DNA of 64,000 nucleotides from Candidatus Latescibacterota bacterium (GTDB taxonomy: Bacteria; Latescibacterota; UBA2968; UBA8231), in the NCBI GenBank assembly GCA_965203175.1, contig OZ241867.1, positions 3,264,001 to 3,328,000 of the forward strand, written 5' to 3'. Every line of letters begins with the position of its first letter. Position 1 is the first letter of the stretch. This document shows, one piece after another, positions 1,802-64,000 of the stretch. The translations under genes and the position numbers were made by a program. The notes under the pieces are model-generated. The model was not told the DNA's origin. It worked only from the letters and a program-made list of their open reading frames with translations, and did no database searches.

Positions 1802-1954
1802 GCTCGTATAGCAACCCATTATCGCTACCGGCGCAGACCTTTCTCTCACAACATTCTATTGCACAGTCTGCGGAAAAAGGGTTGATTGATTTACTCCTGC
1901 CCCCCTTTCCTGCAAGTAAGGGAACCGTCGCTTAGAGCAAAAAAGGGTGGAGTA

Positions 1955-4900
1955 ATGAACGACGCGAGTGAATCCGCAAAAATCCCGAGTCAGAAAAAAT
2001 CCTTTGATCACATCCTCGGACAGCACTACACGGTCTTCGACGGGCTGGCTGGGATGCACGTGGAAGACATCTACCAAGACCGGCGCGGCCTGCTCTGGAT
2101 CGCCACGGCCGACGGCGGCGTAAGCCGGTTCGACGGGGTGCATTTCGATACTTTTGGCCTGTCGAACGGGATGCCCCATCTCACGGTAATGACGATTGCC
2201 GAGGACCAAGACGGGCGGCTGCTCTTCGGGACGCTCGGCGGCGGGCTGGCCGCGTATAACGGACGTAGCTTGCAGGTGTACACCACCGAGCATGGGCTAC
2301 CGTCCAACAAGATCCTGAGCTTGCAACCGCAGACCGATGGCTCGATGCGGGTGCTGACCGACGCAGGAGTCGGCCGGTTTGCCGACGGGCAGTGCGTAGA
2401 GTGCGTGACAGACATTGAGGGTCAGCCGCTAGGCGCGGTGTACGACATAGCGACTGACGCGGCGGGAACGACGTGGCTGGCGACGCGAGAGCGGGGGGTA
2501 ATCAGCCTTGATGGTCGCCACCTGAGCATGGACTTCAGCGCGGAAAACGGCGCGATGCAGTGGCCTTGGAAATTCGCCCAGGGCACCTCCGGCCCGCTTT
2601 GGATCGCCTTTCGCTATGTTGGTACCGAACCCGTTATAGGCTGCTATGATCCAGTTAGCCAACAGCTCGAACTCATCAAGGCGGGCGATCGGGTCGAAGG
2701 GGCGGATATCGTACAGCACGGCACGCGGCATGTGCGCTTGGACGATAGAGGCTGGCTGTGGATGACCCGCCGAGGCGTCCTGGTGTACGACGGGCAGGCT
2801 TGGCATCCATTCTACACCCGCTTGCCGGATAGCCACTTTTCGGATACGCGGCTGACGTACGAGGACCGCGAGGGGAATATCTGGGTGGGGCTTTGGGGCG
2901 GCGGGCTGGTTTTTTGCGATCCGGTCAGTGTCCAGTTATACACCGAAGCCGACGGCCTACCCGACTGCGAGGTCCGGTGTCTGGACGAAGACCGCGAAGG
3001 TCGGCTATGGATCGGTACGATGGGGGGCCTAGCCTACCGCGAAGCCGACCGGATTCGCCCGGTGGCTCCAAGGCGGACGGTCTCGACTCTGGTGGTAGAT
3101 CGACAGGGGCAGGTCTGGAGCGGAGGGCCCACAGGACAGGTGTTCAGGGAGACGGGTGGAGAGACCCAAGCGATTGAGGTAGCCGAGACAACCCACGCCG
3201 AAGGAATCGCCGGGCTATGGGAAGACCAAGCAGGAAACCTAAGCGTCTGCACGTCCAAAGGGCGATTGGGACGGATCGCAGAAGATCGCTTTATGGAGCG
3301 CAAGGAGTGGTTGCCCGGCGATTGCACCGTCGCGTTGCAGGACGGTGCGGATGCCTTCTGGATCGGCCTCAGTAGGAAAACGTCGGCCCTATGCTATTGT
3401 AAAGATGGCCATTTCCACACGCCTGATATGGCCGGCTTGGAAGCCATCGCGGATGTGAGTGCTTTGTGCGAGTATCAGGGCGTACTCTGGGTGGGGACAG
3501 AAAACTACGGCCTGTTCGCCTTGGATTACGCCTCTGGGGAGATCCGCCGGTTTACGGTGGATCAGGGGGCACTGTCCGTCAATGGCATTTTGGCGCTGGT
3601 AAAAGACCCGCAGGGCGGTATGTGGATTGGGACTAGCGGCGGAGGCGTACTGAAGTACGATGGCCAGACCTTCCAGTGCATCCGGCTGGGGCCGGGCGCG
3701 TTGGAGAATATCGTCGAGGCCATCCTGCGCGATAGCCAAGGCCAGTTGTGGTTTGGGACGCGGGCCGGTCTCATTGCCTATCAGCCTGGGGAGACGCCGC
3801 CCCTCATCCGAATTCGCCAAGTCGTGGCCGGGCGAACTTGGGACGAACCCCAAGCCGTGTCCTGCCCGGAGAGCACCCCCGAGATTCAGTTCCACTTCCA
3901 AGGCATCAGTTTCAGGAGCGGGGCCGAGCAAATGCGTTACAGCCATCGGCTCGTCGGCTACGGCCCGGCCGCAGAGTGGAGCGCGTTCACGCTCGCCAAT
4001 AACGAGACGTACAACGGCGTGCCAGCCGGCCCATTTCGCTTTGAGGTGCGGACCATGGACCGGGATGGCTTGGTGTCAGAAGTAGCCAGCGTAGATGTGC
4101 GGGTAGTCCCCGACGCCCAAAGCGCCCACATCCGGCTCCTAGAGCAAATGCTGCGGATCCCGGGTCGGGAATTTCTCAGCCAGAGCCCGGCCATGGCCCA
4201 GCTCTTGGAGCAGGTCGCCCGGATGGCCGAGACCGATATGACCGTGCTGGTGCTGGGCGAGACCGGCGTGGGCAAGGGAGTGCTGGCGCAGATCATCCAC
4301 AGTCTGAGTCCGCGGCGAGAGCACCCCTTTGTCGCCGTCAATTGCGGGGCCTTGCCCTCCGGGTTAGTCGAAAGCGAGTTGTTCGGCCACGAGAAGGGCG
4401 CCTTTACCAGCGCGGTGAACCGGCAGATCGGCTATTTTGAACGGGCGAATGGCGGCACTTTGTTCCTCGATGAAATCGGCGACTTGTCCCCGGACGCTCA
4501 ACGGGTGCTGCTCCAAATCTTGGAGGAGGGCTACCTGACCCGCATCGGCGGCGAGAAGTCCATTCCGGTGGATGTGCGGGTGGTTGCGGCAACCAACCGC
4601 GATATGAAAAAGGCCATCCGGGAGGGGACGTTTCGGGATGATCTATTCTATCGCTTGGACGTGTTCACCGTGACGCTGCCGCCGCTGCGGGACCGCCGGG
4701 AGGACATCCCGGTCTTGGCGGCGCATTTTGCGAGCCGATATGCCCAAAACCTGCGGCAGCCGGTGCCGGTTCTGAGCGACGAGGTGATAGCGCACTTGCA
4801 AGGGTATTCTTGGCCGGGGAACGTGCGCGAGCTGGAGCACGTGATCCAGCGGGCGGTGGTGCTGTGCGAGGATGATGTCATTCAGGTGGCGGATGCGCCG

Positions 4901-5101
4901 CTTGAGCCGCTGACCTCTGCTGCGCCGATTGCAGGGGCTGAGATCGAGGACGAGAAACAGCAAATAGTGGCGGCCCTGCAAGCGACCAACTGGAGGATTT
5001 ATGGCGAGCGGGGCGCAGCGCACTTGTTGGGTATGCACCCGGAGCGGCTGCGTTCCCGCATGCGCGTGTACGGGTTGCAACGACCCAAGAAATCCTCTTA
5101 A
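1955..5101 (+). CDS. Sigma-54-dependent activator: Reg_prop beta-propeller repeats + Y_Y_Y + AAA+ + Fis-type HTH (copy 1)
   Basis: Repeated DxxGxLWI blades; Y_Y_Y-like segment (MRYSHRLVG...YNGVPAGPFRFEVR); Walker A GETGVGK; ESELFGHEKGAFTSA; FLDEIGD; WPGNVREL; C-terminal HTH. ATG 1955 follows GGTGGAG and is preferred over the ORF-track start 1886. Confidence 0.92.
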   Translation: MNDASESAKIPSQKKSFDHILGQHYTVFDGLAGMHVEDIYQDRRGLLWIATADGGVSRFDGVHFDTFGLSNGMPHLTVMTIAEDQDGRLLFGTLGGGLAAYNGRSLQVYTTEHGLPSNKILSLQPQTDGSMRVLTDAGVGRFADGQCVECVTDIEGQPLGAVYDIATDAAGTTWLATRERGVISLDGRHLSMDFSAENGAMQWPWKFAQGTSGPLWIAFRYVGTEPVIGCYDPVSQQLELIKAGDRVEGADIVQHGTRHVRLDDRGWLWMTRRGVLVYDGQAWHPFYTRLPDSHFSDTRLTYEDREGNIWVGLWGGGLVFCDPVSVQLYTEADGLPDCEVRCLDEDREGRLWIGTMGGLAYREADRIRPVAPRRTVSTLVVDRQGQVWSGGPTGQVFRETGGETQAIEVAETTHAEGIAGLWEDQAGNLSVCTSKGRLGRIAEDRFMERKEWLPGDCTVALQDGADAFWIGLSRKTSALCYCKDGHFHTPDMAGLEAIADVSALCEYQGVLWVGTENYGLFALDYASGEIRRFTVDQGALSVNGILALVKDPQGGMWIGTSGGGVLKYDGQTFQCIRLGPGALENIVEAILRDSQGQLWFGTRAGLIAYQPGETPPLIRIRQVVAGRTWDEPQAVSCPESTPEIQFHFQGISFRSGAEQMRYSHRLVGYGPAAEWSAFTLANNETYNGVPAGPFRFEVRTMDRDGLVSEVASVDVRVVPDAQSAHIRLLEQMLRIPGREFLSQSPAMAQLLEQVARMAETDMTVLVLGETGVGKGVLAQIIHSLSPRREHPFVAVNCGALPSGLVESELFGHEKGAFTSAVNRQIGYFERANGGTLFLDEIGDLSPDAQRVLLQILEEGYLTRIGGEKSIPVDVRVVAATNRDMKKAIREGTFRDDLFYRLDVFTVTLPPLRDRREDIPVLAAHFASRYAQNLRQPVPVLSDEVIAHLQGYSWPGNVRELEHVIQRAVVLCEDDVIQVADAPLEPLTSAAPIAGAEIEDEKQQIVAALQATNWRIYGERGAAHLLGMHPERLRSRMRVYGLQRPKKSS

Positions 5102-5142
5102 CGGGCAAAGGAACCGCAGCCGACGGGCCGGGGTTGTTGATG

Positions 5143-5227
5143 AAAAATCGTATAAAAGTCGTATAAAAATCGTATTTATACGGCAAAAGTCGTATAAATC
5201 CACGACAAAGATCGCGGAAAGTCTTGC
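5143..5227. repeat. 11-bp tandem repeat array AAAA(A/G)TCGTAT, putative upstream activator sequence
   Basis: Three tandem units at 5143-5175, a fourth at 5185-5195, degenerate units ending in GGAAAGTCTTGC at 5227; 113 bp upstream of a -24/-12 promoter. Confidence 0.8.
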
Positions 5228-5290
5228 GCCGATGGCGAGACGGTGCCTCATAGAAATCCCCATCCCATAATTTTAAGTATCATGTTTTTC

Positions 5291-5322
5291 AATCCTTTAG
5301 GTACGTCCTAAAGGATTTTTTT
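5291..5322 (+). promoter_or_regulatory. 11-bp perfect inverted repeat plus T-run (terminator or protein site), overlapping an IHF-like motif
   Basis: AATCCTTTAGG-TACGT-CCTAAAGGATT followed by TTTTT; TTTCAATCCTTTA resembles WATCAANNNNTTR. Confidence 0.6.
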
Positions 5323-5339
5323 GTGTATGGCCTGACCGT

Positions 5340-5355
5340 TGGCACACAATTTGCA
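5340..5355 (+). promoter_or_regulatory. Sigma-54 -24/-12 promoter
   Basis: TGGCACACAATTTGCA has the exact GG-N10-GC spacing, directly downstream of a bEBP gene. Confidence 0.88.
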
Positions 5356-5385
5356 TGCTCTATATCGTCGTTGAGGGTGAAGCCG

Positions 5386-5427
5386 ATGCAGAAGAAAGGA
5401 GGCGATTTCAAACTGACACAGCACTAG
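5386..5427 (+). CDS. Possible 13-aa leader peptide MQKKGGDFKLTQH
   Basis: ATG preceded by GAGGGTG, first ORF after the sigma-54 promoter, followed by two hairpins. Confidence 0.3.
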   Translation: MQKKGGDFKLTQH

Positions 5428-5526
5428 GTGGGGGCCTACTCCCCTGGGCCTCCCCACCGTCCGTTAGGGCTGCTGCGGCCCTACCGATGATAGTTCCTTT
5501 AACCCGATAACCCGAGGAGGGTTGCT

Positions 5527-5655
5527 ATGTTGTTACCACATCACTCGAAGGACTGGATAGGGGCCGTGTGCTGGATCTTGGGCTACGTCGGCCTCGTTTT
5601 GCTATACCACTTGGTGGCAGGTGGTACATTAATTTCAGGTTCAATAACGAGATAA
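5527..5655 (+). CDS. Small 42-aa single-TM protein (not in ORF track)
   Basis: Strong RBS GAGGAGG; MLLPHHSKDWIGAVCWILGYVGLVLLYHLVAGGTLISGSITR*; overlaps the 3' end of the convergent gene. Confidence 0.5.
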   Translation: MLLPHHSKDWIGAVCWILGYVGLVLLYHLVAGGTLISGSITR

Positions 5656-7679
5656 CTAACGCTCCTTGCTTCCATCTCAATTGGAATCTCAATGTTGTAA
5701 TATCGGTCGATTTTGTAGCATTTGGATTCTCCTTCTTTTTCACGAACCTTGGCAATTTCAGACAACCCGGTATAATAGAGTGGTAATTTCAAAGTCATCC
5801 GTTGTACCGTTCGCGTAGGATTATAGAGCATCGCGAGTCCACAGGGATTGATTTGCGCGTTGGCATGGAGGACACAATCAATAGAGCGGCCATCTGGGCG
5901 GCGCACGTGAATGAGGTCAGAATCCAATATTGGGCGATACTTTTTGTAAAAGTCAACCCATTTCTTAACGATGGTTTTTGTCTGTTCAGTATCAAAAAGT
6001 CGAGGACCGCGATAGCACGCAATCACACCGCTGCCGAAGTTCTGTGCGAGATGTGATTCGTAGTCATCAAGGTGTTCACAAAGCGGCTCAAACGTTGCGG
6101 CTGCTCCGCCGCCGTGGTACTCCACCAACGGGACGAACATCCAACCCATACTGGGTGTCTTTTCATACGTGGCATCGTAGATATTCTGCCGGGCAATTAA
6201 AATTTGCCGCTCGCGGGGCAAGCTGAAGTTCGTTTCGCGATAGCCCATCCCACATTTGTTTGAACCGTTGAAGTAATACTGATCTGGCGAATTGATATAG
6301 ATACCGCGTTTTCGACATTCGTGGTAAAAATGAACGCACGCTTCCCACTGACGCAACTGCGAATCCGCTAAACCGTTATGATGCTCGTGCGTCGTTGCAG
6401 CACAGATGTCACCATGATACGGACCGTCAGTCTCTATGATATCCATTCCGGTTGCATCCATGAAATTCAGCACTCGTTGGAAATAACCATCTGCCCATCT
6501 GCTCGCAAGACAAGCACTCTGTCCAAACCTACTTCCGGGTTGCCCGGTGTCTGGGTCAACACAGTTGAAATCTTCACCCGCATTCCGCGAAGCACACATC
6601 AGTGTATAACCGCCGAGTTGAATACCTTTGTGGTGGGCATAATCGGTCAATTCTTTCATTGTGGTTATGTATTCCGGATCTTCGCTCTCAATATTGAATC
6701 CACTTCCAAAGGTCATAATCACCATTTCAAATCCGACTGCGGCGCACTGATCTATCGCTAAACGGACAGCATCTGGCTCGGCACTCCGAACGTGCATGAA
6801 AATTGGATTCTCCGTGACCTGTGGCGCGACCGTGCGATACATCTTGCGGCGTGCGAGTCCTTTTCGCTCACGCGAATCACTATCATGTAGAATCTCGAAG
6901 GTGCGGAAGCTCTTGAAGGTCTCACCCGGTTGAAGAAGGACTCCCGGACCGAGTGGATAGCGGCTTGTCATCAACAGTGGCATCTGATAGTTATAATCGA
7001 CTTGCGTCTTGTAATCTGCATCTGGTCCCCAGTGTGTCGTTTCCATTCCGCTGAAGGCATAATCGCTCTCGACATGTAGCCGATGCTTTTCCTGCTCGTT
7101 GACAGCAAGGATTTCACAGTTTAAGGCATCGAGTTGAATCGGTTCTTGACTCTCATTGTGAATAGTGATCCACTTGGACAGTGCTGGAATGCCTTGGTAT
7201 AATTCATAATGCGCGCATACCTGAAGGGAGTTAGCGGATGGCGGCGGTGAGAACACAACCGTCAGTTTCACACCTTCTGGTGGATGGACTGATGATGTCG
7301 TAGAACGCCTGTGTACCCACGGATAGCGGATTTCAGGTGTACCGACCCTATATTCGCGAAATTGAAATGCGTTCTCGTCACTGGTCAAATCCGCGATCCA
7401 ATCCGAATCAAGATAGGCGTAGTCGGGCTGTCCTTTCAAACCACCCACTTCATATTCGTTTCCGTTAATTGCAAGTACCGCCTCTGGTTTGATGGCGCGA
7501 AGAAGGGTATTACCGGTAATTTGATTGGTATAATCAACCGTTGCGAAATTAGGTGTGGTAGCGAATGTTCGGCGAATGAGTCCATTGTTGAGAATAAGTT
7601 GACTGTCCTTTTCTTCTACTAAAGCGGGTTGGCGAAAGGGCTGAACCAACCAATCATTTTGTTGTGATGTGTATTGCAT
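5583..7679 (-). CDS. Putative glycoside hydrolase (alpha-galactosidase/GH36-like)
   Basis: 698-aa ORF with an N-terminal beta-sandwich (LILNNGLIRRTF), a TIM-barrel-like core (TENPIFMH, IETDGPYHGD) and a C-terminal beta domain; visibly lower GC than its neighbours. Confidence 0.6.
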   Translation of the reverse strand: MQYTSQQNDWLVQPFRQPALVEEKDSQLILNNGLIRRTFATTPNFATVDYTNQITGNTLLRAIKPEAVLAINGNEYEVGGLKGQPDYAYLDSDWIADLTSDENAFQFREYRVGTPEIRYPWVHRRSTTSSVHPPEGVKLTVVFSPPPSANSLQVCAHYELYQGIPALSKWITIHNESQEPIQLDALNCEILAVNEQEKHRLHVESDYAFSGMETTHWGPDADYKTQVDYNYQMPLLMTSRYPLGPGVLLQPGETFKSFRTFEILHDSDSRERKGLARRKMYRTVAPQVTENPIFMHVRSAEPDAVRLAIDQCAAVGFEMVIMTFGSGFNIESEDPEYITTMKELTDYAHHKGIQLGGYTLMCASRNAGEDFNCVDPDTGQPGSRFGQSACLASRWADGYFQRVLNFMDATGMDIIETDGPYHGDICAATTHEHHNGLADSQLRQWEACVHFYHECRKRGIYINSPDQYYFNGSNKCGMGYRETNFSLPRERQILIARQNIYDATYEKTPSMGWMFVPLVEYHGGGAAATFEPLCEHLDDYESHLAQNFGSGVIACYRGPRLFDTEQTKTIVKKWVDFYKKYRPILDSDLIHVRRPDGRSIDCVLHANAQINPCGLAMLYNPTRTVQRMTLKLPLYYTGLSEIAKVREKEGESKCYKIDRYYNIEIPIEMEARSVSYLVIEPEINVPPATKWYSKTRPT

Positions 7680-7724: not shown

Positions 7725-9623
7725 TTATGCGGGGTAGAGGCCGCTGCGGGCTAGGGATTCCCAACATCGCATGGGTGATTCTTCAAGTAGCGCCGAGACT
7801 TCCGCCTGGAGGTCGCTCGCGATTTCGCCCTCGGGACGCAAATGGGCTAGGCGACCCAGCGCATCCATGGCAAAGCCGACGCAGATGGCGTTCTCGTCGC
7901 TGCGGATGACTTCTTGCAAGGCCCGGGCGGTCGACTCCAGCGCCGGGCCGGCAATCGCGGTGCCGTGGGAACAGAGGATGACCATGGACCACAGCGCATT
8001 CTCGCGCACGGCCGAGCGCACCGGCTTGAACTGCTCGAGGCCAAAATCGACGCCACCGCCTTCGCACACATCGCATTCATCGGTGGGCCGCACGAACTTT
8101 ATGCTCCGCCCTTGCGCCCGGTCCATGGCCAGCCGGTTTTCCTCGCGGCCCAGACTCTGCACCAGCGCTTTGAGGCAGGCGGGTATCAGTGCTCGGCCGA
8201 CCCCAGTGGCGACGGCGCGGCGGCCGAGGCAGCCAAGAGTGCCAGCGGCGACGGCCCGGACATATACCGATGGATCTTCACGCAGGCGCGTTGCCACGGT
8301 CTGCAAAACTGCGTCGTTGAGGGGACTGGCGTCGCCCAAGCCGTACACGCCGGCCTTGCGGACCCATTTGATGGGGGAATTTGCCGCTTCTAGCAAAGTG
8401 TCGGTCGCCTCAGCACCGACGGCAATTAGGCCATAGGCGGCAGCCCGCCGGACGCTCTCTCGGTCGTTGTATAGAGCTTGACCGAGCAGCCGCACGGCCA
8501 GCGCCGGGTCGCCGATGGAGGCCAGCTTGTACGCCGCGCCAATACGCGCTGGCTCGGCCTCTTCGCCTTTGGCGAGGAGCTGGGTAAATAAGCGGTTGGA
8601 TTCCGCTTCCCGGTCTGCCGACGATAGGGCGGCGGCTTCGGGTCGCGGCGGCGGCGTTTGGCCCGTCTGCATCCAGTGGTGGTGATAGCGCCAGACCGAG
8701 GTTACGTCGTCGCTGGCTGCGGAGCGGTCGATGTGGGTCAGCGGGTCCACGCCAAGTCCGTTCCACTGCACTGCGGCTGGTGAGCCATTGTCGCCGGAAG
8801 GGTCCGTGGTGCGATAGATCCAGAAACGCCACATGAAGCGCGGGTTGTCTTCCCAAGTGCGCCAATCGTCGCGGCGGTGGTTGCCCCGGTGGAAGGTGTT
8901 ATGCGAGTACAACACGACGCTGCCGGCGCGCAGCGGAGCCGCTTCAAAAGGCTGTACGAGCGGCCACTTTAAGTTGGTGACCGCCTCCCGCATGCGCACG
9001 TCGTGTGCGGTGCGGCGATGGACGATATCGCTGGGGTCGTATTGCGAGTCGGGGCCGCTGACCATCTGGCCCTCCATGCCGCTGAGTTGGTAGGCGAAAT
9101 CGAGGTGGTCGGCCCCGGCGAAATTGTCGTGGTTTTCTTCGTGGTTGAAGGTCCAGTAGTGGGAGTAAGGCACGGTCGCCGTCGGGCCCATGTCCTCGCG
9201 CACGGCCTGCGGATAGTACAGCATTTCGATTTGCACGGCTTGGTGGTGGCGCTGTTTGCGGCCGTTGAACGGGCCGTTGTCGTCCTTGTGCCAGTGCTGG
9301 TCGCGGCCGCCGCTGGTGAAGGTCGCATTGTGGGTGAACGGCACAATGGCCCAGTTTTTGCCGACCAGTTGGTTGCAGGCCGCGACGACGCCAGGGGCGT
9401 TGATGACTTCGAGCACGTCTGGAATGAGTTCGGGCGTAACGCGCTCGCCAGTGCCGACCGCCTGCTTTTCGCGCTGGTAGATCCGCTCGTGGACTGCGGC
9501 TGGAATGCCTAGGCTTTCCGGGGAGAGGACGACTAGTCCGCGGCTGGCGAAGTCCTGTACTAGTTGTTCTGGCTCGCTGTAGGCTAGTTGGGCTGGGGCA
9601 GAAGAAAGCTCTTTCGCGGTCAT
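7725..9623 (-). CDS. PhyH-like Fe/2OG dioxygenase fused to HEAT repeats
   Basis: WHKD, GPTATVPYSH and TFHRG motifs; C-terminal HEAT_PBS repeats (ESVRRAAAYGL, WVRKAGVYGLG, YVRAVAAGTLG). Confidence 0.8.
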   Translation of the reverse strand: MTAKELSSAPAQLAYSEPEQLVQDFASRGLVVLSPESLGIPAAVHERIYQREKQAVGTGERVTPELIPDVLEVINAPGVVAACNQLVGKNWAIVPFTHNATFTSGGRDQHWHKDDNGPFNGRKQRHHQAVQIEMLYYPQAVREDMGPTATVPYSHYWTFNHEENHDNFAGADHLDFAYQLSGMEGQMVSGPDSQYDPSDIVHRRTAHDVRMREAVTNLKWPLVQPFEAAPLRAGSVVLYSHNTFHRGNHRRDDWRTWEDNPRFMWRFWIYRTTDPSGDNGSPAAVQWNGLGVDPLTHIDRSAASDDVTSVWRYHHHWMQTGQTPPPRPEAAALSSADREAESNRLFTQLLAKGEEAEPARIGAAYKLASIGDPALAVRLLGQALYNDRESVRRAAAYGLIAVGAEATDTLLEAANSPIKWVRKAGVYGLGDASPLNDAVLQTVATRLREDPSVYVRAVAAGTLGCLGRRAVATGVGRALIPACLKALVQSLGREENRLAMDRAQGRSIKFVRPTDECDVCEGGGVDFGLEQFKPVRSAVRENALWSMVILCSHGTAIAGPALESTARALQEVIRSDENAICVGFAMDALGRLAHLRPEGEIASDLQAEVSALLEESPMRCWESLARSGLYPA

Positions 9624-11489: not shown

Positions 11490-12277
11490 TGCAAAGAAAA
11501 GGCGTTTCCTTTTCCGTTTTTACCAAAATGTGGCAGGACAAATCTCCAACCGAACTCGGAGAGTTTGTACTCGATTTGGGCTTCGACGGCATTGAACTGC
11601 CCGTGCGTGCGGGTTATCCAGTGCCCCCCGAAAGTGTTGGACGCGATTTGCCCAAAGCGGCACAGGAACTCAGCGCCTTGGGTGTTGCCATTACCAGTGT
11701 GGCCGGACCGACGGACGAAGCAACCATTGTGGCTTGCGGCGCTGCCGGAGTTTCAGTCATTCGCACCTGCCCAGCTATCATTTCTGAAGGGTATTTAGCC
11801 AGCATAGAAGGTCACCAGCGAGCCTTTGACGCCCTGATTCCCTTGCTCGACAAACACGGGGTGGCTTTGGGCATCCAAAATCACGAAGGCCAATGGGTGT
11901 GCAATGCCATGGGTATAAAACACCTAATTGACCGCTACGATCCCAGCCATATCTGCGCCATACCCTGTGCCGGGCACACGGCTCTCAACGGAGAATCCCC
12001 CGAGATGGCGATCGATATCGTCTGGTCGCATCTGTCCCAGTTCAAGCTCAAGAATGCGTACTGGCGGCGGCAGACCGGACCGGAAGCGGAAAACGTGGAA
12101 TGGCGTCCTTATTGGACCACGGGACGGCAGGGCTTGGCGTCGTGGCCGCGGTCGGTCGCGGAACTGAAACGAAGGGGTTTCAGCGGTGTCGTCTGCATGG
12201 ATGCCGAATACCACGATGCAGCCTCCACAGAACGACTCCTCGCCGAAGACCTGGCCTTTGCCAAATCTCTGTTTTGA
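11489..12277 (+). CDS. Sugar phosphate isomerase/epimerase (xylose isomerase-like TIM barrel)
   Basis: LGFDGIELPVR and IQNH motifs; TAATG stop/start overlap with uxuA. Confidence 0.8.
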   Translation: MQRKGVSFSVFTKMWQDKSPTELGEFVLDLGFDGIELPVRAGYPVPPESVGRDLPKAAQELSALGVAITSVAGPTDEATIVACGAAGVSVIRTCPAIISEGYLASIEGHQRAFDALIPLLDKHGVALGIQNHEGQWVCNAMGIKHLIDRYDPSHICAIPCAGHTALNGESPEMAIDIVWSHLSQFKLKNAYWRRQTGPEAENVEWRPYWTTGRQGLASWPRSVAELKRRGFSGVVCMDAEYHDAASTERLLAEDLAFAKSLF

Positions 12278-32091: not shown

Positions 32092-32098
32092 AGCACCG

Positions 32099-34108: not shown

Positions 34109-34172
34109 TCGTTCCTCTTTTTCAGGGGTGCTACACCACATAATATCGTACGTAATATACATACTGGTCGGC

Positions 34173-37112: not shown

Positions 37113-37114
37113 AG

Positions 37115-39934: not shown

Positions 39935-39945
39935 CTCGTAGGCTT

Positions 39946-42189: not shown

Positions 42190-42234
42190 GTCAGTCCCTT
42201 TTCATTGAAACTAACCGAGAACGCGGCCACAAAT

Positions 42235-48880: not shown

Positions 48881-48899
48881 GGGTGAGGTTGGGCAATAT

Positions 48900-56733: not shown

Positions 56734-59455
56734 GTGAACGGCGTGAGGGAATCTGCAAAAATCCCGAGACAGAAAAAGCCCTTTGATCGCATTCTAGGGC
56801 ACCAGTACACCGTCTTCGACGGGCTAGCTGGGATGCAGGTGGAAGACATCTACCAAGATCAGCGTGGCCTGCTGTGGATCGCCACAGCCGACGGCGGCGT
56901 GAGCCGGTTCGACGGAACGCACTTCGATACCTTTGGCCTGTCGGATGGGCTTCCCAGTCTCACGGTATCGACCATCGCCGAGGACGCAGACGGGCGACTG
57001 CTCTTTGGTACGCTCGGCGGCGGACTGGCGGCCTATGACGAGCGCGGTTTTCAGGTGTACACCACCGAGCACAGGCTACCCTCCAACGACATAGTGAGCC
57101 TGCAACCGCAGGCCGATGGTTCAATACGGGTGCTGACCGATGGAGGGATAGGCTGGTTTGCCGAGGGGCGATGCGTAGAGCGCGTGACAGAAATTGCGGG
57201 TCAGCCGCTAGGGTGGGTGTACGACATGGCCACTGACACAACGGGTACGACGTGGCTGGCGACGCAGCAACGGGGGACCATCAGCCTGGACGGTCGGCGC
57301 ATGAGTGCGGAGAATGGCGCAATGCAGTGGCCGTGGAAGTTTGCCCAAGACGCCTCTGGTCCTCTGTGGATCGCCTTTCGCTACGTTGGCACCAAAGTCG
57401 TTATAGGCCGCTACGATCCAGACAGTCAACGGCTCGACCTGATCGAGGCAGACGCAGCTATCGAAGGGACGGAGGCCGTAAATCACGGTACTCGCCATGT
57501 GCGCTTGGACGATAAAGGCCGGTTGTGGATGGCTCGCCAGGGCGTGCTAGTGTACGACGGGAAGGAATGGCATCCTTTTTCCGCTGGCTTGCCGGATGTT
57601 CACTTTTCGGATGCGCGGCTGACCTATGCGGACCGCGAAGGAAATATCTGGGTGGGATTGTGGGGCGGCGGACTGATTTTTTGTGATCCGGTTAGTGTTC
57701 AGTTATACACCGGAGCGGATGGCCTGCCCGACAGCGGGGTCCACCAGCTCAGCGAAGACCATCAAGGCCGGGTCTGGATCGGCACGATGGGGGGGCTAGC
57801 TTGTCTTGAAGACGGCCGGATTCGCTCAGTGGAGACCGGGCACAAGGTCACGGCGTTGGCGATAGACCGCCAAGGACAGATCTGGCGCGAGAGCCCCGAG
57901 GGGTCTGTCCGTCAATGGCATTCTGGCTCTGACGGCCGACCCTCAACAAGGGTGTCTGTGGATTGGGACTAGCGGCGGAGGCGTGCTGAAGTACGATGGC
58001 CGGGGGTTTCAGAGCATCCGTTTGGGCAAATCCACCTTGGAGAATATCGTCGAGGCCATCCTGCGCGATAGTCGGGGCCGGCTGTGGTTCGGGACGAGGG
58101 CGGGGCTGATTGCGTATCAACCTGGCAATACGCCCCCGGGTATCGTGATTCGCCAAGTTGTGGCGGGGCGTCTGTTGGAGATGCCCCAAGCCGTGTCCTG
58201 TCCAGATAGCACCCCTGAGATTCAGTTCCACTTCCAGGGCCTTAGCTTCCGAAGCGGGGCCGAGCAGATGCGCTACAGCCATCGGCTCGTCAGCCACAGC
58301 CCGGCAGAAGAGTGGAGTGCGTTCACGTCTTCCAACAGAGTGTCGTACAACGGCGTACCGGTCGGCCAGTTCCGCTTTGAGGTACGGGTTTTAGATCGGG
58401 ATGGCCTCATGTCGGAAGTCGCTAGCCTCGATGTACAGGTGTTTGCCGACGAGAAGAGCGTGCGCCTTCAGCGCTTAGAACACATGCTGCGGGATGCGGA
58501 TCAGGACTTTCTCTATCAGAGCCAAGCCATGACCCAGCTCTTAGAGAGGATCGAGCAGATGGCCGATACTGATATGACGATGCTGGTGCTAGGCGAGACC
58601 GGCGTGGGCAAGGGCGTGCTCGCCCAGAGGATCCACAACCTGAGCCGACGCCGAGGGCAGCCCTTTGTCGCGCTCAATTGCGGCTCCCTGCCCGCCGGGC
58701 TGATTGAGAGCGAGTTGTTCGGCCACGAGCGAGGGGCTTTTACTGGTGCCGTGAAGCGGCATATCGGCTGTTTTGAACGGGCTAACTACGGCACCTTGTT
58801 CCTCGATGAAATCGGCGATCTGTCGTTAGAAGTCCAACAGGCACTGCTCCGCATTCTGGAGAATCGCTACCTGACGCGCGTCGGCGGCGAGCAGTCGATC
58901 CCGGTGGATGTGCGGGTGATTGCGGCGACCAACAAGGATCTGAAAGAGGCCATCCGGGCGGGGACGTTCCGGGAAGATCTGTTCTACCGCTTGAGCGCGT
59001 GGCCGGTGAAGCTGCCGCCGCTGCGGGAGCGTCGAGAGGATATCCCGCTCTTGACGGCGCATTTTGCGCGTCGGTATGCCCAAAATTTGCAGCGATCGGT
59101 GCCAGCGTTGGGCGACGGAGTGGTGAAGCATTTGCAGGCGTATGCGTGGCCGGGAAATGTGCGCGAGTTGGAGCATCTGATCTGGCGGGCGGTGGTGCTA
59201 TGCCAAGGGGAGGCCATTCAGATGGAGGATGTGCCGCTGGCTGCTGAAGACGAAGCCACGGAGAAGCCTCTTGAGCCGCCGCCCGCGCCAGTTGAAGCCG
59301 AATTCAAAGACGAGAAACAGCAAATCGCGGAGGCGCTACAAGCGACCAACTGGATGGTTTATGGCGAGCGGGGTGCGGCGCGCTTGTTGGGCATGAACCC
59401 GGAGAAGCTGCGCTACCGCATGCAGAAGTACGGGTTGCGCCGACCGAAGAGGTAG
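56734..59455 (+). pseudogene. Propeller/Y_Y_Y/sigma-54 activator copy 2, split by an internal deletion and frameshift near 57904
   Basis: ORFs 56734-57972 and 57983-59455 align with the N- and C-halves of 1955-5101; copy-1 nt 3137-3571 are replaced by one base; the C-half has intact GAFTGA and HTH. Confidence 0.8.
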
Positions 59456-59492: not shown

Positions 59493-59559
59493 CACGGAAA
59501 GTCGTGGAGAATCCACGGAAAATCGTGGAAAGCCCACGGAAAATCGTGGAAAGTCTTGC
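59493..59559. repeat. Three 21-bp tandem repeats containing palindrome CACG-N6-CGTG, putative upstream activator sequence
   Basis: CACGGAAAGTCGTGGAGAATC / CACGGAAAATCGTGGAAAGCC / CACGGAAAATCGTGGAAAGTC; 112 bp upstream of a -24/-12 promoter. Confidence 0.85.
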
Positions 59560-59620: not shown

Positions 59621-59652
59621 AATTCTTTAGGGTGTTCCTAAAGAATTTTTTT
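59621..59652 (+). promoter_or_regulatory. 11-bp perfect inverted repeat plus T-run, homolog of 5291-5322
   Basis: AATTCTTTAGG-GTGTT-CCTAAAGAATT followed by TTTTT. Confidence 0.6.
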
Positions 59653-59670: not shown

Positions 59671-59686
59671 TGGCACGAAATATGCT
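59671..59686 (+). promoter_or_regulatory. Sigma-54 -24/-12 promoter
   Basis: TGGCACGAAATATGCT has GG-N10-GC spacing, at the same position in the module as 5340. Confidence 0.85.
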
Positions 59687-59775: not shown

Positions 59776-61854
59776 ATGCGCTGCATGCTCTTTGCAATTC
59801 TACTGTTGGTCGCTCCGCGCGGCGTAGTTGCCCTAACGTGGGATTTCGACGACGGCATCACTTGGGGCTGGACCGCCCGGGAAGGTTTTCATAGCAATAC
59901 AAGAAGCGGTTTTGAACTACTACAGAGCGAAGTCATCGATGGGGTCTGGCGCATCGCGCCCGTGCCCGGTCGCAGACCCACCGTTCAATTGTGTTCACCG
60001 TTGATCGGGGAGGACTCGGCCCTGTTCGACCGCCTCACCCTACGGCTGCGCCTCATACACCATAGTCCCACCGAAGAACAATTCGCGATGTACTGGTCCA
60101 ATGCTGTGAGCCGCCCTGACTCTGACACAAAAGGAGTATTTGGTACGGGACGGCAGCAATCCTATCCCCTTGAATGGGAAGAAATCACCATAGACCTACG
60201 CGCCTTGGCAGAAGCAGACACAGAATGGGCGATCACCTGGCAGGATACTCTTTTTAATTTTTCTCTAGACATGCTGTTATATCGAGACTCTCAGGATGTG
60301 GACAACCACCCAAAGTTTTTAGAAATAGACTGGATCCAGCTTATAGGAGCCGAAGAGTTGGCGCAGGGAGAATTGTCGCCTCGGGATCTCGGTGTGGAGT
60401 TGGAGCCGCCCGGCACGCTGTTCGCCGACCCCGACTTTTTCCCGCTCGGAGAGGGCATCGGCACCCCAAACTATCGGCGAGCATCGCAAGGTGCGGTGGG
60501 CGACGTAGACGGCGATGGCGATGCGGATCTCGTGGTGGCCTGGAACCGCCTTGTGGACCGCGGCAGAGAACTGGGCTGGACCGTGGCGTCCAACGACGGG
60601 CTAGGCGGCTTTGAACCCACCCAAGAAGTCCCCCTTTTAACCACATTTGACTTTCCATTCATGGATCTCTGGGGAAGCGACTTCGACGACGATGGACTCC
60701 TAGATCTGGTCGTTGCCGAAAGCGGAATCGTCGAACTGTGGTACAACTGGGGCGACGGCTTTGATCTCACCCTGCAACTGTCCGATGTCTGGCCCATTGG
60801 CTTAGCCGATGGCGACGGTGACGGCGATACGGACCTGTTGGTCTGGGAGTACGACGCGTTGTCCCGAAAAGTGATTCTGTGGATTAACGACGGCTACGAG
60901 TTTGTCCGCGGTGAGGAATTTGTCCTCGGCAGCGAAGAGCATCTCCTTGCCTACCTACCCGCCGGGCAACCCTTAGGCGAAGCTGCGAGCCTGTTGTGGC
61001 ACCAGCCGCAGGGGCCTTGGCAACTGACCCGGCCGTGGGCCGCCAGCCAAGAACCACTGCGCTCTTTCGAAGCCGGGGTCAATCCCTATGCCCTGCACTT
61101 ACTGGCAGATCTCGACGGCAATGGGATGGTGGACCTACTCGGCTCCCCTGAGAGCATAGATAGGTTCGGTGAAACCGACTACTACGGCTTGGCTCTGTGG
61201 CGTCTGGACGCTTCCGGCGGGATGGCACGCCATTACTTGCTCGCCTGGAAGGCGTTCATAGCGCACGAAGCCACCGCCAGCGACCTCAACGGCGATGGCG
61301 TGCTGGATTTGGCTATGGTCGCTGGCAACTTGACCATCGGTCGTCCAGCTCTATTGGTGTGGCTCGGCCAGCGCAACGGCGCACCCGTCTTCGAAGGCTA
61401 TTACCCCTTATCCGGCGAGGGCAATCAGGTCCTCGCCAGCGATGTCAACGGCGATGGCGACCTCGATCTGGTCGTGCTGGGAACGAATCCGATAAGTGGT
61501 CTCGGCGGCGTCTTCGTCTTGATCAACCAAGGCAGCTCGGCCACCGCCGTAGCGGCCGAGGTGGCCACGCCAACTACCTTTGCTTTAGGTGCCAACTATC
61601 CCAATCCGTTCAATCCCGCCACAACCATCCCCTTGACCGTGCCCGCTGGAGCCAAAAACGTGGACTTAACTATCTACAATGTCTTGGGGCAGCCGCTGCG
61701 TCGAGTGTGGACGGGTTCTCTGCCTGCCGGCGAGCATCGGCTGACTTGGGATGGCCGGGATGCGCAAGGCCGACCTGTCGCCACTGGGGTCTATGTGTAT
61801 CGGTTGCAGGTGGACGAGCAGACGCGCACCCGCAAAATGGTTAAACTTGAATAG
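59776..61854 (+). CDS. Secreted FG-GAP/VCBS-repeat protein with C-terminal FlgD/T9SS type A-like domain
   Basis: RBS GGAGGT; signal peptide; DxDGDGDxDL repeats; NYPNPFNP...WDGRD...GVYVYRL...KMVKLE. Confidence 0.88.
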   Translation: MRCMLFAILLLVAPRGVVALTWDFDDGITWGWTAREGFHSNTRSGFELLQSEVIDGVWRIAPVPGRRPTVQLCSPLIGEDSALFDRLTLRLRLIHHSPTEEQFAMYWSNAVSRPDSDTKGVFGTGRQQSYPLEWEEITIDLRALAEADTEWAITWQDTLFNFSLDMLLYRDSQDVDNHPKFLEIDWIQLIGAEELAQGELSPRDLGVELEPPGTLFADPDFFPLGEGIGTPNYRRASQGAVGDVDGDGDADLVVAWNRLVDRGRELGWTVASNDGLGGFEPTQEVPLLTTFDFPFMDLWGSDFDDDGLLDLVVAESGIVELWYNWGDGFDLTLQLSDVWPIGLADGDGDGDTDLLVWEYDALSRKVILWINDGYEFVRGEEFVLGSEEHLLAYLPAGQPLGEAASLLWHQPQGPWQLTRPWAASQEPLRSFEAGVNPYALHLLADLDGNGMVDLLGSPESIDRFGETDYYGLALWRLDASGGMARHYLLAWKAFIAHEATASDLNGDGVLDLAMVAGNLTIGRPALLVWLGQRNGAPVFEGYYPLSGEGNQVLASDVNGDGDLDLVVLGTNPISGLGGVFVLINQGSSATAVAAEVATPTTFALGANYPNPFNPATTIPLTVPAGAKNVDLTIYNVLGQPLRRVWTGSLPAGEHRLTWDGRDAQGRPVATGVYVYRLQVDEQTRTRKMVKLE

Positions 61855-61912: not shown

Positions 61913-64000
61913 ATGCGCCGCGTTCTCTTTGCAATGTTGTTGGTGGCTGCTCCACACGGAGTCTCTGATTTAACGTGGGATTTTTCTGCGGGCTGGGCGG
62001 CACAGGAGAGTTCCGCAACGACTGCCATGGTGAGTAGCGAAATCGTGACGTCGAGTGCTCGTCTGGACGCAGACAGTACTCAGAGCCAGCCGTCGGTTGT
62101 GATCATCACCGGCGAAGTCCAGAATCCTCGCTCGCGAAAAATCACATTTAGATACGAATCGCCGTCGGCGCTGGAAAGCTCCGAGCAGCGCGTTGCACTC
62201 GACAGCTTGGATCGCTTCGCCTTCGAACTGCCTGTCGTCCGGGGGACCTTCGTCAGTGGGTATTTCGAAGGCGGGCAGCCAAGATGGGAATGGGTGCAGT
62301 GGTTAGGATCGTTCCTTTTCGAGCGCAGATCCCTGGCTCTTTTCGTCGAACCCGGCGATAGTCTGCACGTGGCCGTGGAGGAGGGCTTTTTCGCTTCTTC
62401 CTATTCGTTCAGCGGCTCCAACGCGGACAACAGCCGCTTCACTTCTGAGTGGATCCCGCAATTCTACTCCTTACGCCTCGACCGCGACGCATACAAGGGT
62501 CTGGGGATCGAGGATTTCAAGGACCTAATGGAACAGTGGCGACGGGATCAGTTCGAGTTCTTGGCCGAGGAGCGCGAGCAATACGCGCTGTCTTCAGGGT
62601 GCGTCGACTATGTGACGAACTACGTCAACTACGAGTGGGCCCTTAGGATGGTTGATTACCCGTCGCGTTACCAGTTTGCCAACGGACGAGAGAACAGAGA
62701 CATCACCCCGGAGTACTACGACTTCCTGCAGGAATTTCCCCTAGTGGACGAAAAGGCCATAGGCATAGGCCATTATCGCTGGTTTCTGGAACGAGCCTTG
62801 GACCGTGACCATGACGATGACCATAGCCCCAAGCTGTCTAAGATGTATGATCTATCGGGTTTGGAGTTGTCGGAGGAGACCCACGCGCAACTCGACTCCC
62901 TGTACGAAAAAGACGGCCGACAGCCCGTGCTATCGAAAATGGTCGATTTGTCGGCGTTTGGTGTTGCGGAAAGCGCTCAATCGCAACTGGACTCCCTGTA
63001 CGAAAAAGAGGGCCGATGGCTCAAGCTTTCCGAGCGGTACGATTTGTCGGCGTTTGGCGTTGCGGAAAGCGCTCAATCGCAACTCGACTCCCTGTACGAA
63101 AAGTCCGATAGGTCCCTCAACTTCTACTGGTTCAGTGAGGAAGAAAAGCCTAAGGCGGATACGACGGGCGGGGAGTTGGTGCTCCACATACCTTCTGGAG
63201 TGCGGTTGGATTCCCTAGCCAAAGAGCCGCCCAAGCTATCGGCGAAGATGGATCTATCGATTTTGAAGCTGTCGGAAGCCGCTCAGGCTCAGCTCGACTC
63301 GATGTACGAACATCGTCAACCGCTCGGGCTGTCGGCGAAGATTGATCTATCGGGATTGGGGCTGTCGGAAGCTGCTCAGGCCCAACTCGACTCGATCTAT
63401 GCCGGAAAAGGACATTGGTTTGGGTCTAGATACAATCTGGCCAAAGAAAAACTCGAAGGGAGAGTGCTCTACTGGTTTTTAGCCGGAGAGTTGATCAATA
63501 CGCTCAAGCGCGGTAGCAGTGAAGCCTTTGCGTGGGCCCAGCACAAGTGGGAAGAGTTCCAAGAGGTCAACCCGTATCCGGAATACAATGAGGCCGTGCT
63601 AGTGGCTCTTGCTGCCGCCCTGAAGCTACAACCCGGAGAACCCGCACCCGACTTCACGCTCGACGACCTCGACGGTCAGCCCGTATCGCTGAGCCAGTTC
63701 AAGGGGAAAGTGGTTCTGCTCGATTTCTGGGCGAGTTGGTGCGGGCCGTGTATCAACGACCTACCCTATCTCCGAGAAGTCAAGAAAAAGACGTCTGACT
63801 GGCCGGTCGTCTTCCTCAACATATCGCTGGACGCGGATGATGCTGCTTGGCGAGAGGCGATTGATGAACACGAGATCAAAGGCGTCCACGTGCGCGCGGA
63901 CGGCTGGGGCGCAGAGGTAGCCAAAACCTACCAAGTGATGGGCATCCCTTCGTATTATTTGGTGGACTCACAAGGGCTGATCGTAGAGAATCATGGCCTA
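61913..64000 (+). CDS. TlpA/ResA-family thiol-disulfide oxidoreductase with long N-terminal extension, 3'-truncated (absent from ORF track)
   Basis: RBS GGAGGT and ATG 61913 (MRRVLFAMLLVAAP...); the same frame reads PAPDFTLDDLDGQPVSLSQFKGKVVLLDFWASWCGPC near 63640-63755 and runs off the window. Confidence 0.88.
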   Translation, partial: MRRVLFAMLLVAAPHGVSDLTWDFSAGWAAQESSATTAMVSSEIVTSSARLDADSTQSQPSVVIITGEVQNPRSRKITFRYESPSALESSEQRVALDSLDRFAFELPVVRGTFVSGYFEGGQPRWEWVQWLGSFLFERRSLALFVEPGDSLHVAVEEGFFASSYSFSGSNADNSRFTSEWIPQFYSLRLDRDAYKGLGIEDFKDLMEQWRRDQFEFLAEEREQYALSSGCVDYVTNYVNYEWALRMVDYPSRYQFANGRENRDITPEYYDFLQEFPLVDEKAIGIGHYRWFLERALDRDHDDDHSPKLSKMYDLSGLELSEETHAQLDSLYEKDGRQPVLSKMVDLSAFGVAESAQSQLDSLYEKEGRWLKLSERYDLSAFGVAESAQSQLDSLYEKSDRSLNFYWFSEEEKPKADTTGGELVLHIPSGVRLDSLAKEPPKLSAKMDLSILKLSEAAQAQLDSMYEHRQPLGLSAKIDLSGLGLSEAAQAQLDSIYAGKGHWFGSRYNLAKEKLEGRVLYWFLAGELINTLKRGSSEAFAWAQHKWEEFQEVNPYPEYNEAVLVALAAALKLQPGEPAPDFTLDDLDGQPVSLSQFKGKVVLLDFWASWCGPCINDLPYLREVKKKTSDWPVVFLNISLDADDAAWREAIDEHEIKGVHVRADGWGAEVAKTYQVMGIPSYYLVDSQGLIVENHGL
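62831..63400 (+). repeat. Five intragenic 93-96-bp (31-32 aa) repeats
   Basis: Units start at 62831, 62927, 63023, 63233 and 63326; consensus LSxxxDLSxxxxxExxxxQLDSxY. Confidence 0.85.

Follow-up and report, generated by a model that had tools for sequence, protein, structure and literature searches.

The present analysis concerns a stretch of 64,000 nucleotides from a Candidatus Latescibacterota bacterium, hereafter referred to as the window (contig OZ241867.1, positions 3,264,001 to 3,328,000), in which two related genes for predicted sigma-54 activators, designated A1 and A2, are each followed by a repeat array, a short conserved block, a palindrome and a sequence resembling a -24/-12 promoter. 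This layout raises the question of whether such an activator gene carries, immediately behind its own stop codon, the control region through which the locus next downstream is regulated. The initial annotation had proposed precisely this, i.e., a family of portable cassettes in which each activator controls the locus that follows its own gene. The analysis reported here, which covers both window copies and the activator family to which they belong, argues with reasonable confidence that both units are sigma-54 regulatory cassettes of the one-component type, and control of the downstream locus by the activator is considered a well-founded inference.

In the mechanism proposed, the C-terminal helix-turn-helix (HTH) of the activator would bind the array located just 3' of the stop codon of its own gene, where two to six RTCGT-NNN cores occupy one face of the DNA on a 10.5-nt lattice, approximately 128-195 nt before the TGGCAC of the promoter. 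Such binding would concentrate the protein and assemble its AAA+ ring, which, presumably upon sensing a signal, would loop to the closed sigma-54 holoenzyme at TGGCAC-N5-TTGC, a site 26-28 nt beyond the hairpin core, and open the promoter. The hairpin formed by the palindrome, together with its U-run, would end the activator transcript and so insulate the next promoter from read-through, while hairpin and conserved AT-rich flank may additionally mark a point at which the DNA bends. The genes transcribed as a result would mostly be those of secreted FG-GAP proteins with type IX secretion system (T9SS) tails, redoxins and PD40 propellers, and sometimes that of the next activator.

The control region of locus 1 begins with a putative enhancer, or upstream activating sequence (array 1, 5143..5199, plus strand, as are all elements of both modules), in which AAAA(R)TCGTATA occurs four times, successive starts being 11, 11 and 20 nt apart. 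Their RTCGTATA cores lie 193, 182, 171 and 151 nt before TGGCAC, and an inverted copy, ATTTATACG/CGTATAAAT, is also present. The conserved block GGAAAGTCTTGC (5216..5227) continues into an AT-rich segment containing ATTTTAAG, and is followed by the hairpin (5291..5322), in which a palindrome with arms AATCCTTTAGG and CCTAAAGGATT (5291-5317) provides a perfect 11-bp stem and a 5-nt loop and overlaps a run of seven T residues. The left flank and arm of this hairpin, TTTCAATCCTTTA (5287..5299), deviate at one position from the consensus of integration host factor (IHF), WATCAANNNNTTR. The sigma-54 type promoter, TGGCACacaatTTGCA (5340..5355), has its GG at 5341-5342 and its GC at 5353-5354, and includes TGGCACacaatTTGC (5340-5354).

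At locus 2 the array (59493..59555) consists of three 21-nt units of the type CACGGAAARTCGTGGA, with RTCGT cores 170, 149 and 128 nt before TGGCAC, so that the two arrays differ both in period (11 versus 21 nt) and in half-site (CGTATA versus CGTGGA). The identical 12-mer GGAAAGTCTTGC recurs at 59548..59559, and the second hairpin (59621..59652; arms AATTCTTTAGG and CCTAAAGAATT, palindrome 59621-59647, then seven T) differs from the first by one compensatory change of C-G to T-A. The second promoter, TGGCACgaaatATGCT (59671..59686; including TGGCACgaaatATGC, 59671-59685), carries one mismatch to the consensus TGGCAC-N5-TTGCW, which is matched perfectly at 5340. Transcription would be expected to start near 5365-5367 and 59696-59698, respectively. 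The layout described in the initial annotation, i.e., activator, phased array, GGAAAGTCTTGC, palindrome and TGGCAC-N5-(T/A)TGC, was thus recovered at both loci, and re-measurement reproduced its distances from block end to TGGCAC (113 and 112 nt) and from palindrome end to TGGCAC (23 and 24 nt).

Within the 64-kb window these elements are largely confined to the two modules. The promoter pattern occurs twice where 0.38 occurrences are expected (five of 100 shuffles reach two), the palindrome core twice against 0.10 expected and the block GGAAAGTCTTGC twice against 0.34, while three of three and four of five window matches to the two array words fall inside the arrays (0.54 and 0.20 expected). 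Further sigma-54 promoters were sought in the window using a one-mismatch pattern, which gave 28 matches against 18 expected, none of them in a module context, and none was accepted as an additional candidate. As an alternative, sigma-70 promoters were considered at both loci, yielding a single weak 9/12 match that overlaps TGGCAC at locus 1 and none at locus 2.

The A1 gene (1955..5101, plus strand; ORF 1886-5101, probable start ATG 1955) is intact and encodes a protein of ~1048 residues, for which Pfam returned many Reg_prop repeats (E 4.6e-37), Sigma54_activat (PF00158, E 1.9e-67) and AAA_lid_14. All AAA+ motifs are present, namely GETGVGK, GAFTSA (a variant of GAFTGA) and LFLDE. The first 737 residues match the periplasmic sensors of Bacteroides hybrid two-component systems (HTCS), i.e., 3v9f (E 3e-43) and 4a2l (E 3e-38), and the C-terminal Fis-type HTH reads PERLRSRMRVYG. 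HTH_8 is absent from the Pfam matches of A1 at E <=0.001; the region is homologous to the HTH of A2 and aligns weakly with the DNA-binding domains of bacterial enhancer-binding proteins (bEBPs) in 2m8g (E 0.1) and 9qq6 (NifA; E 0.23). On domain evidence, A1 would combine an HTCS-like sensor, made up of a Reg_prop double propeller and Y_Y_Y, with an AAA+ domain and a Fis-type HTH. No hydrophobic segment or signal-like N-terminus was found in A1 (maximum KD19 1.32, in the Walker A region) and, because signal peptide and membrane segment are lacking, the sensor is predicted to be cytoplasmic and the protein a soluble sigma-54 enhancer-binding protein.

To what extent the control region belongs to the family was assessed in relatives of A1. 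A protein search returned thousands of these, the best 120 of which are 62-96% identical to A1 and ~1040-1050 residues long. A contig search with the sensor part of A1 yielded 68 loci (given L numbers below), all of them records of metagenome-assembled genomes (MAGs), whose titles mostly name Candidatus Latescibacterota, with some Gemmatimonadetes/Gemmatimonadota and a few short contigs otherwise labelled. Activator 3' ends were located by tblastn with the last 120 residues of A1, which gave 65 unique ends after exclusion of one duplicate locus and seven short secondary matches; up to eight lie on one chromosome (OZ220690.1) among the loci fetched. The array, palindrome and GG-N10-GC that the initial annotation expected at fixed spacing behind other paralogs were indeed found there, as 47 of the 65 ends have a hairpin and promoter module at most 420 nt from the stop codon. 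The AAA+ loop motif reads GAFTGA in 37 family rows, GAFTSA in 16, GAFTNA in five and otherwise in two, and was not found in six.

Alignment of 48 modules shows the GG and TGC of the -24/-12 element to be invariant. The T-run, the left flank TGTTTTTCAAT and, in the stem core, TTTAGG/CCTAAA are invariant or more than 90% conserved, while the loop and the 17 nt between T-run and TGGCAC show free variation. All 49 module rows (48 of them unique) have the end of CCTAAA 26-28 nt before TGGCAC, and 39 of 47 aligned modules have the YTTG of the conserved block 114-119 nt before it. It was also observed that the stretch between array and hairpin (5216-5290 and 59548-59620 in the window) is homologous throughout the family, reading YTTGYRNCGAYGRC, GCCTCRTAGAAA and CATAATTTTAAGTATCATG in succession, with YTTG one helical turn past the last array core. 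Successive forward RTCGT cores (n=101) are spaced by 10-11 nt in 40 cases, by 19-23 nt in 56 and by 40-43 nt in five, and, among 44 arrays, 27 have the core nearest the promoter at 127-131 nt before TGGCAC and 14 at 146-151 nt; orthologs are included in these counts, which do not represent independent events. On account of these spacings and distances, all cores fall on one 10.5-nt lattice that is anchored to the promoter.

If the arrays were read by the HTH encoded just upstream of them, the two would be expected to vary together. Array half-sites indeed differ by paralog group, being CGTATA/T/G, CGTGGA, or CGTTCA or CGTGCA, and each form is paired with a particular recognition helix of the HTH: LRSRMR(V/Y/A)(Y/F)G with CGTAT, LRYRM(Q/R)KYG with CGTGG, and LRYRMRKHG with CGTTCA/CGTGCA. 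The Ser or Tyr in LR[S/Y]RM agrees with CGTAT or CGTG/CGTTC arrays, respectively, in 45 of 45 rows. On a FastTree phylogeny of 61 activators from which the last 60 residues, i.e., the HTH, had been removed, the Ser/Tyr state and the CGTAT/non-CGTAT state each change eight times, and all seven independent pairs on well-supported branches are co-directional (sign test p 0.0156). Within the Tyr class, 27 of 28 rows combine KH with CGT(T/G)CA or KY with CGTGG; the rows comprise just two independent pairs, too few to test. The variable residue aligns, weakly (E 0.1 and 0.23), with a recognition-helix Tyr in NifA and NtrC-type DNA-binding domains, namely that in DYRIKKYG (2m8g) and in AYRIQ (NifA, 9qq6), a position that, from work on Fis and NtrC, we take to face the DNA.

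A point that weighs against reading this agreement as recognition is the proximity of HTH and array, which lie less than 200 bp apart and have evidently been exchanged together. For example, the activator of L020 is 85-97% identical to those of L022 and L002 up to approximately residue 1000 and only 72-75% identical over the last 60 residues, while A1 is 80-93% identical to those of L021 and L005 up to approximately residue 690 and 61-75% identical beyond. Because HTH and array are exchanged together, with breakpoints upstream of the HTH, linkage alone can yield the concordance. It might accordingly be supposed that the arrays are not sites of the adjacent activator at all, and that they serve another protein, such as a stand-alone HTH or another paralog, or represent slippage repeats, with HTH and array simply travelling as neighbours. 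The existence of short HTH-only ORFs of 55-60 residues and of the LRYRMRKYG type in six loci, and of orphan modules without an adjacent activator, would fit this alternative. It is nevertheless judged improbable: none of the eight switches is discordant, the finer match within the Tyr class (27 of 28 rows, two independent pairs) points the same way, a helical lattice at a fixed distance from a sigma-54 promoter is what an AAA+ ring enhancer needs, and orphan modules retain relics of the 3' coding end of an activator, which implies descent from activator-linked modules. The co-variation is therefore as expected if each activator reads its own array, and is taken as consistent with binding rather than as proof of it.

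Among the stand-alone HTH ORFs, that in L029 (~12070-12246), which contains MPLMTLPEAEKRQIL and LRYRMRKYGLKRP and has equivalents in L031, L033, L034, L035 and L038, follows two redoxin genes at a distance of ~3 kb from the module, on its downstream side, and belongs to the class that pairs with CGTGG arrays. Its product may act as a competitor or an anti-activator, or the ORF may be a relic.

The function of the palindrome was judged from its anatomy. A terminator scan scored both window hairpins as terminator-like on the plus strand, with centroid energies of -14.3 kcal/mol for copy 1 and -11 kcal/mol for copy 2 (z -3.15 and -1.67). Across the family, pairing is retained in 99.1% of alignment cells (47 distinct rows) against 32-75% in slid controls; compensatory double changes affect three of nine pairs and eight cells, a cell count reached by none of 500 shuffles; and in 47 of 48 modules the stem runs on into six to eight T. 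In view of the stem, the U-run and the compensatory changes, an intrinsic terminator that would shield the sigma-54 promoter from read-through is favoured, possibly one that also serves as a bending site. Three properties fit this interpretation less well, namely the fold of copy 2, which is not clearly better than that of shuffled sequence (z -1.67), the AT-rich stem (four G-C among 11 pairs), and a degree of invariance, in TTTAGG/CCTAAA as well as in the TGTTTTTCAAT flank, that goes beyond what a terminator needs.

The opposite possibility is that the palindrome acts chiefly as a site at which IHF or another architectural protein binds or bends the DNA and so aids looping. IHF sites in classic sigma-54 promoters lie in the region in question: the best match to the IHF consensus begins 52-54 nt before TGGCAC in 45 of 48 modules, and the segment corresponding to TTTCAATCCTTTA deviates from WATCAANNNNTTR at one position in 31 modules, two in 14 and three in three. 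The constant distance of the right arm from TGGCAC, and the conservation of the inner arms and left flank while neighbouring spacers diverge, would likewise suit a bound protein. However, not one of the 48 modules matches the consensus perfectly and one-mismatch matches are common by chance; the loop between the core arms varies between 4 and 6 nt, which is unusual for a dimer site; and stem changes are compensated between paralogs of a single genome (e.g., rows W1 versus W2, and in L039, L052, L060, L068 and L063), as a single global protein would not require. Together with the T-run and the hairpin of L068, which directly follows the stop codon of a cargo gene, these observations render a mainly architectural role possible but rather less likely than termination. 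The initial annotation mentions, as general background, that IHF often helps looping; the palindrome, which has the anatomy of a terminator, is not an evident IHF site.

Downstream of the promoters, co-directional genes are the rule. A co-directional ORF of at least 90 residues opens at most 290 nt from TGGCAC in 45 of 47 evaluable modules, the two exceptions being window module 1 and its ortholog in L003. Module 2 precedes a gene for a 692-residue secreted FG-GAP protein with a FlgD_ig/T9SS type A sorting tail (59776..61854, plus strand), which begins 105 nt after TGGCAC, and a second gene for a protein of more than 696 residues with a C-terminal Redoxin/AhpC-TSA domain of the ResA/TlpA-like type (61913..64000, plus strand), which runs past the end of the window. 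For the family, a Pfam scan of 57 downstream ORFs from 30 modules, drawn from 89 candidate ORFs (in two cases the next longer ORF was taken instead), assigned 14 to FG-GAP with FlgD_ig (mostly ~700 residues), 13 to PD40/DPPIV_N propellers, ten to Redoxin/AhpC-TSA, three to Peptidase_A24-like membrane proteins, two to further Reg_prop sigma-54 activators, one to a Reg_prop fragment, and one each to WD40, DUF4159, CHU_C and FlgD_ig only, leaving ten with no family. In L055 and L058 the module precedes the next activator, which amounts to a cascade. The claim in the initial annotation that the downstream genes are unrelated thus holds for the two window copies, while in the family at large a few classes of secreted protein recur.

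Many FG-GAP cargo proteins are moreover alike at their N-termini, where a signal-like segment is followed by (L/I)(T/K)WDFD(D/E)G(T/I)T(W/Q)GW (window 59776-59900; L005, L040, L044, L062); the so-called variable cargo is therefore itself a paralog family.

Several observations weigh against the cassette interpretation, the first of which concern its generality. Eighteen of the 65 activator ends have no adjacent module. At seven of these a module lies 1.3-5.5 kb further downstream: beyond one intervening PD40-type gene in L041, L048 and L066, 3.5 kb away in L056, and, in L039b, L045b and L053b, as the module of the next activator. The remaining 11 ends are module-free, nine of which (L010, L012-L015, L018, L019, L025 and L037) belong in or near two divergent clades. 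The other two are L046, described below, and L064, where a divergent array and a GG..GC motif occur without a hairpin, from which it follows that the hairpin is not indispensable; copies of hairpin and promoter without an array occur in L068 (~12150-12270) and L058 (~3760-3890). Furthermore, no Sigma54 factor domain (rpoN) was found in a scan that covered ORFs of the window only. The proposal that each activator is so equipped was hence too broad, two divergent clades being wholly without the module, and that of a portable cassette stands to the extent that the module is family-wide and that sensor and output parts have been recombined between paralogs, without extending to every activator.

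The other observations concern the window copies, both of which are atypical, one having a broken activator and the other no cargo gene. A2 is represented by an N-terminal propeller fragment (56734..57903, plus strand; ORF 56614-57972), which is 73% identical to A1 residues 24-419, and a C-terminal part (57904..59455, plus strand; ORF 57983-59455), which is 70% identical to A1 residues 588-1069. The latter ORF encodes the last propeller blade, Y_Y_Y, Sigma54_activat (PF00158, E 1.8e-68), AAA_lid_14 and an HTH_8 domain (25.9 bits versus a cut-off of 22) reading PEKLRYRMQKYG, and it retains GETGVGK, GAFTGA and LFLDE. Relative to the ortholog in L020 (positions 7171-7595 of that locus; 91-93% DNA identity), A2 lacks exactly 425 bp at 57903/57904, by which approximately two propeller blades are removed and the frame is shifted, leaving two ORFs. 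Of the two activator genes initially annotated, A1 is intact and A2 is present as a frameshifted paralog. For A2, a sensor-less activator, a pseudogene, a split gene and a collapse in the assembly are all conceivable. With A2 broken, module 2 would depend in trans on a paralog of the same HTH type, or else be decaying. It was noted that the C-terminal ORF, with Y_Y_Y, AAA+ and HTH, is open from a GTG at 57983.

At locus 1, the sole co-directional ORF after the promoter is a small one (5527..5655, plus strand) of 42 codons, which is hydrophobic, is preceded by GGAGG and has no Pfam family. Its 3' part is overlapped by the 3' end of a convergent 698-residue ORF (5583-7679, minus strand). The latter was considered as an inverted cargo gene and rejected, given that it has no similarity to the cargo of module 2 and no Pfam or NCBIfam family. 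An Rfam scan of 5050-5750 (E up to 1) found no RNA family, the two sub-threshold matches to small nucleolar RNAs being due to chance; a structured small RNA in the leader of promoter 1 (5366-5530) was likewise rejected, its fold equalling that of shuffled sequence (z 0.03), and the hairpin word of the leader does not recur in the window as a dispersed repeat. Copy 1 has lost, or never had, a large cargo gene, and the product of module 1 may be a small membrane peptide or a transcript antisense to the convergent gene, if this module yields anything useful at all. The initial view that the activator controls the next locus agrees with the co-directional genes after module 2 and, in the family as a whole, after 45 of 47 modules, while A2 is broken and promoter 1 has no evident cargo.

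The leader of module 1, containing TATATCGTCGTTGAAGGCGAGGCCGATGCAGAAGAAAGGAGG, also occurs in L057 and L068, where it is followed by a 93-residue ORF with a hydrophobic stretch (L057 9492-9770; L068 9505-9783) and then by an FG-GAP gene. Behind this leader, the window and L003 have just the ORF of 42 or 37 codons, respectively.

It may be asked, then, whether both window copies are decaying remnants without present function, the module being functional elsewhere in the family. The frameshifting deletion in A2, the absence of a cargo gene behind module 1, which runs into the convergent ORF, and the high turnover evident in the truncated module of L046, the truncated activator of L058 and the relics in L063 and L011 would all be in keeping with such decay. 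Against it, both window modules retain every position conserved in the 48-module alignment, A1 is intact with all AAA+ motifs, module 2 retains intact its FG-GAP/T9SS gene and the redoxin gene, and the arrangement of module 1, including the small ORF (37 codons), is kept in the separate MAG of L003 at ~90% DNA identity. The A2 gap could, in addition, be an assembly error between similar propeller blades. Decay of both copies is on balance considered unlikely.

The family itself shows ongoing flux, as evidenced by orphans, partial modules, recombinant genes and the A2 deletion. Orphan modules with a full array occur at a distance from any activator in L063 (~6980-7085), L011 (~11500-11605) and L041 (~4280-4545), and those of L063 and L011 have a frameshifted relic of the last ~45 coding bases of an activator just before the array. 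In L046 (9096-9140) a deletion joins the stop codon to the right hairpin arm, by which array and left arm are lost and the promoter is kept. The partial modules of L068, L058 and L046 look like products of recombination or deletion between conserved blocks, which are likely recombination substrates through which sensors and outputs are reshuffled. A separate observation is that a fusion, in the truncated activator of L058, joins the AAA-lid region with the AT-rich block of one module.

Numerous nearly identical copies in each genome, each with an inverted repeat and some without arrays or activators, could also be what a small mobile element would leave, and the conserved 3' module might be imagined as a MITE-like or integron-like element that inserts beside these genes. 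This origin is regarded as most improbable. No flanking terminal inverted repeats, target duplications, transposase or integrase were found; the module stands in one orientation directly after the activator stop codon, minus-strand matches numbering two of ~60, of which one is weak; it has diverged in step with the 3' end of the gene; and the relics of activator coding ends before orphan arrays indicate duplication and deletion of whole genes rather than insertion.

Elsewhere in the window, two 664-residue paralogs with DUF6785 and DUF6784 are encoded at 46940-48934 and 54584-56578 (both minus strand), the second of which is divergently oriented from A2. Four PhyH (phytanoyl-CoA dioxygenase-like) proteins are encoded at 7725-9623 (minus strand) and at 45312-46139, 46173-46931 and 51195-52151 (plus strand), one of them fused to HEAT repeats. 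A run of six large ORFs of 630-979 residues (29314-44127, minus strand) includes two with T9SS-type FlgD_ig tails, three with no Pfam match and one with TPR and PMT_2; no adjoining module or sigma-54 motif was seen there.

The proposed mechanism is a standard one, and the location of a bEBP gene beside its target promoter is textbook knowledge. One-component bEBPs such as NorR, PspF and PrpR are encoded beside the sigma-54 promoter that they activate. The present activators resemble them in their AAA+ Sigma54_activat domain with a GAFTGA-type loop, their C-terminal Fis-type HTH, the repeated sites 100-200 nt upstream of GG-N10-GC, and the location of the regulator gene beside the operon presumed to be regulated. 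They differ in that the Latescibacterota family is expanded and has a common module at the nucleotide level, in which just the array half-site and the HTH residue differ, and in that tandem placement on the same strand after the stop codon, rather than divergent placement, is the rule. Similarly, in tripartite sigma-54 control regions such as those of nifH, Pu and glnHp2, an upstream activating sequence, an IHF site and a -24/-12 promoter succeed one another. The order and approximate distances of enhancer, AT-rich intervening element and promoter are alike, yet the intervening element is here a perfect hairpin with a U-run. Compared with Rho-independent terminators, the hairpin has a typical stem (11-12 bp), loop (3-6 nt), U-run (6-8) and compensatory changes, and is unusual in its AT-rich stem, its location 190-310 nt after the stop codon, the presence of an enhancer inside the 3' untranslated region, and a stem sequence and 5' flank that are conserved beyond the needs of pairing.

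HTCS paralogs of Bacteroides adjoin the polysaccharide loci that they control, and the present activators, whose Reg_prop and Y_Y_Y input domain is homologous to that of HTCS (3v9f, 4a2l/4a2m, 3va6/3ott), likewise each adjoin genes that they presumably control. In contrast to HTCS, they have no membrane segment, histidine kinase, receiver or AraC output (a Pfam scan of the activators returned no HisKA, HATPase, Response_reg or HTH_18), and have a sigma-54 AAA+ motor and a Fis-type HTH instead. Because periplasmic signals, kinase, receiver and AraC output are all lacking, the activators are not HTCS members, and the sensor fold alone is common to both.

A study on Desulfovibrio vulgaris (PMC4641369) places 10 of 13 one-component enhancer-binding protein genes beside their sigma-54 promoters and, in the case of DVU0569, the promoter downstream of the activator's own gene, as in the present family. 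In a search of the literature for Latescibacter(ia), or for the Pfam domains concerned, in combination with sigma-54, none of the papers listed (at the broadest, 15 of 1,307) named this phylum, and the words 'sigma', 'transcriptional regulator' and 'FG-GAP' do not occur in the main text of two Latescibacterota/PAUC34f genome papers. The family departs from these precedents in that a soluble one-component bEBP has a sensor of the HTCS type, in the number of its paralogs, in a chassis conserved base for base around a swappable specificity pair, and in a terminator-like hairpin that occupies a constant position within the control region; no description of this came up among the papers found.

Unusual are the extent and uniformity of the family, which comprises dozens of paralogs. 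Their control regions can be aligned base for base, differ just in the enhancer half-site and in one or two residues of the recognition helix, and have all enhancer sites on a single helical lattice at a constant distance from the promoter. This renders testable how the Fis-type HTHs of sigma-54 activators read DNA, through the Ser/Tyr switch versus CGTAT and CGTG/CGTTC, how the number and phasing of sites drive assembly of the AAA+ ring, and how paralogs avoid cross-talk. It also provides a case in which the HTCS sensor fold is employed in a soluble one-component regulator. A further paper (PMC3162934) links sigma-54 broadly to the cell exterior, and the modules described here link it, in Latescibacterota, to T9SS-tailed FG-GAP, PD40 and WD40 repeat proteins and extracytoplasmic redoxins. 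Tentatively, and with somewhat less than even confidence, the family may be viewed as a natural plug-and-play sigma-54 system. In such a system a constant chassis, i.e., the AT-rich block, the terminator hairpin, the -24/-12 promoter and the AAA+ motor, would be combined with a specificity determined by the Ser/Tyr and neighbouring helix residues versus the three bases after RTCGT, and the chassis would double as homology arms that reshuffle HTCS-like sensors and outputs, these being T9SS-secreted repeat proteins, redoxins and activator cascades. If this proves true, experimenters would gain orthogonal enhancer/activator pairs, and the organisms themselves would possess a rapidly rewirable network controlling the cell surface.

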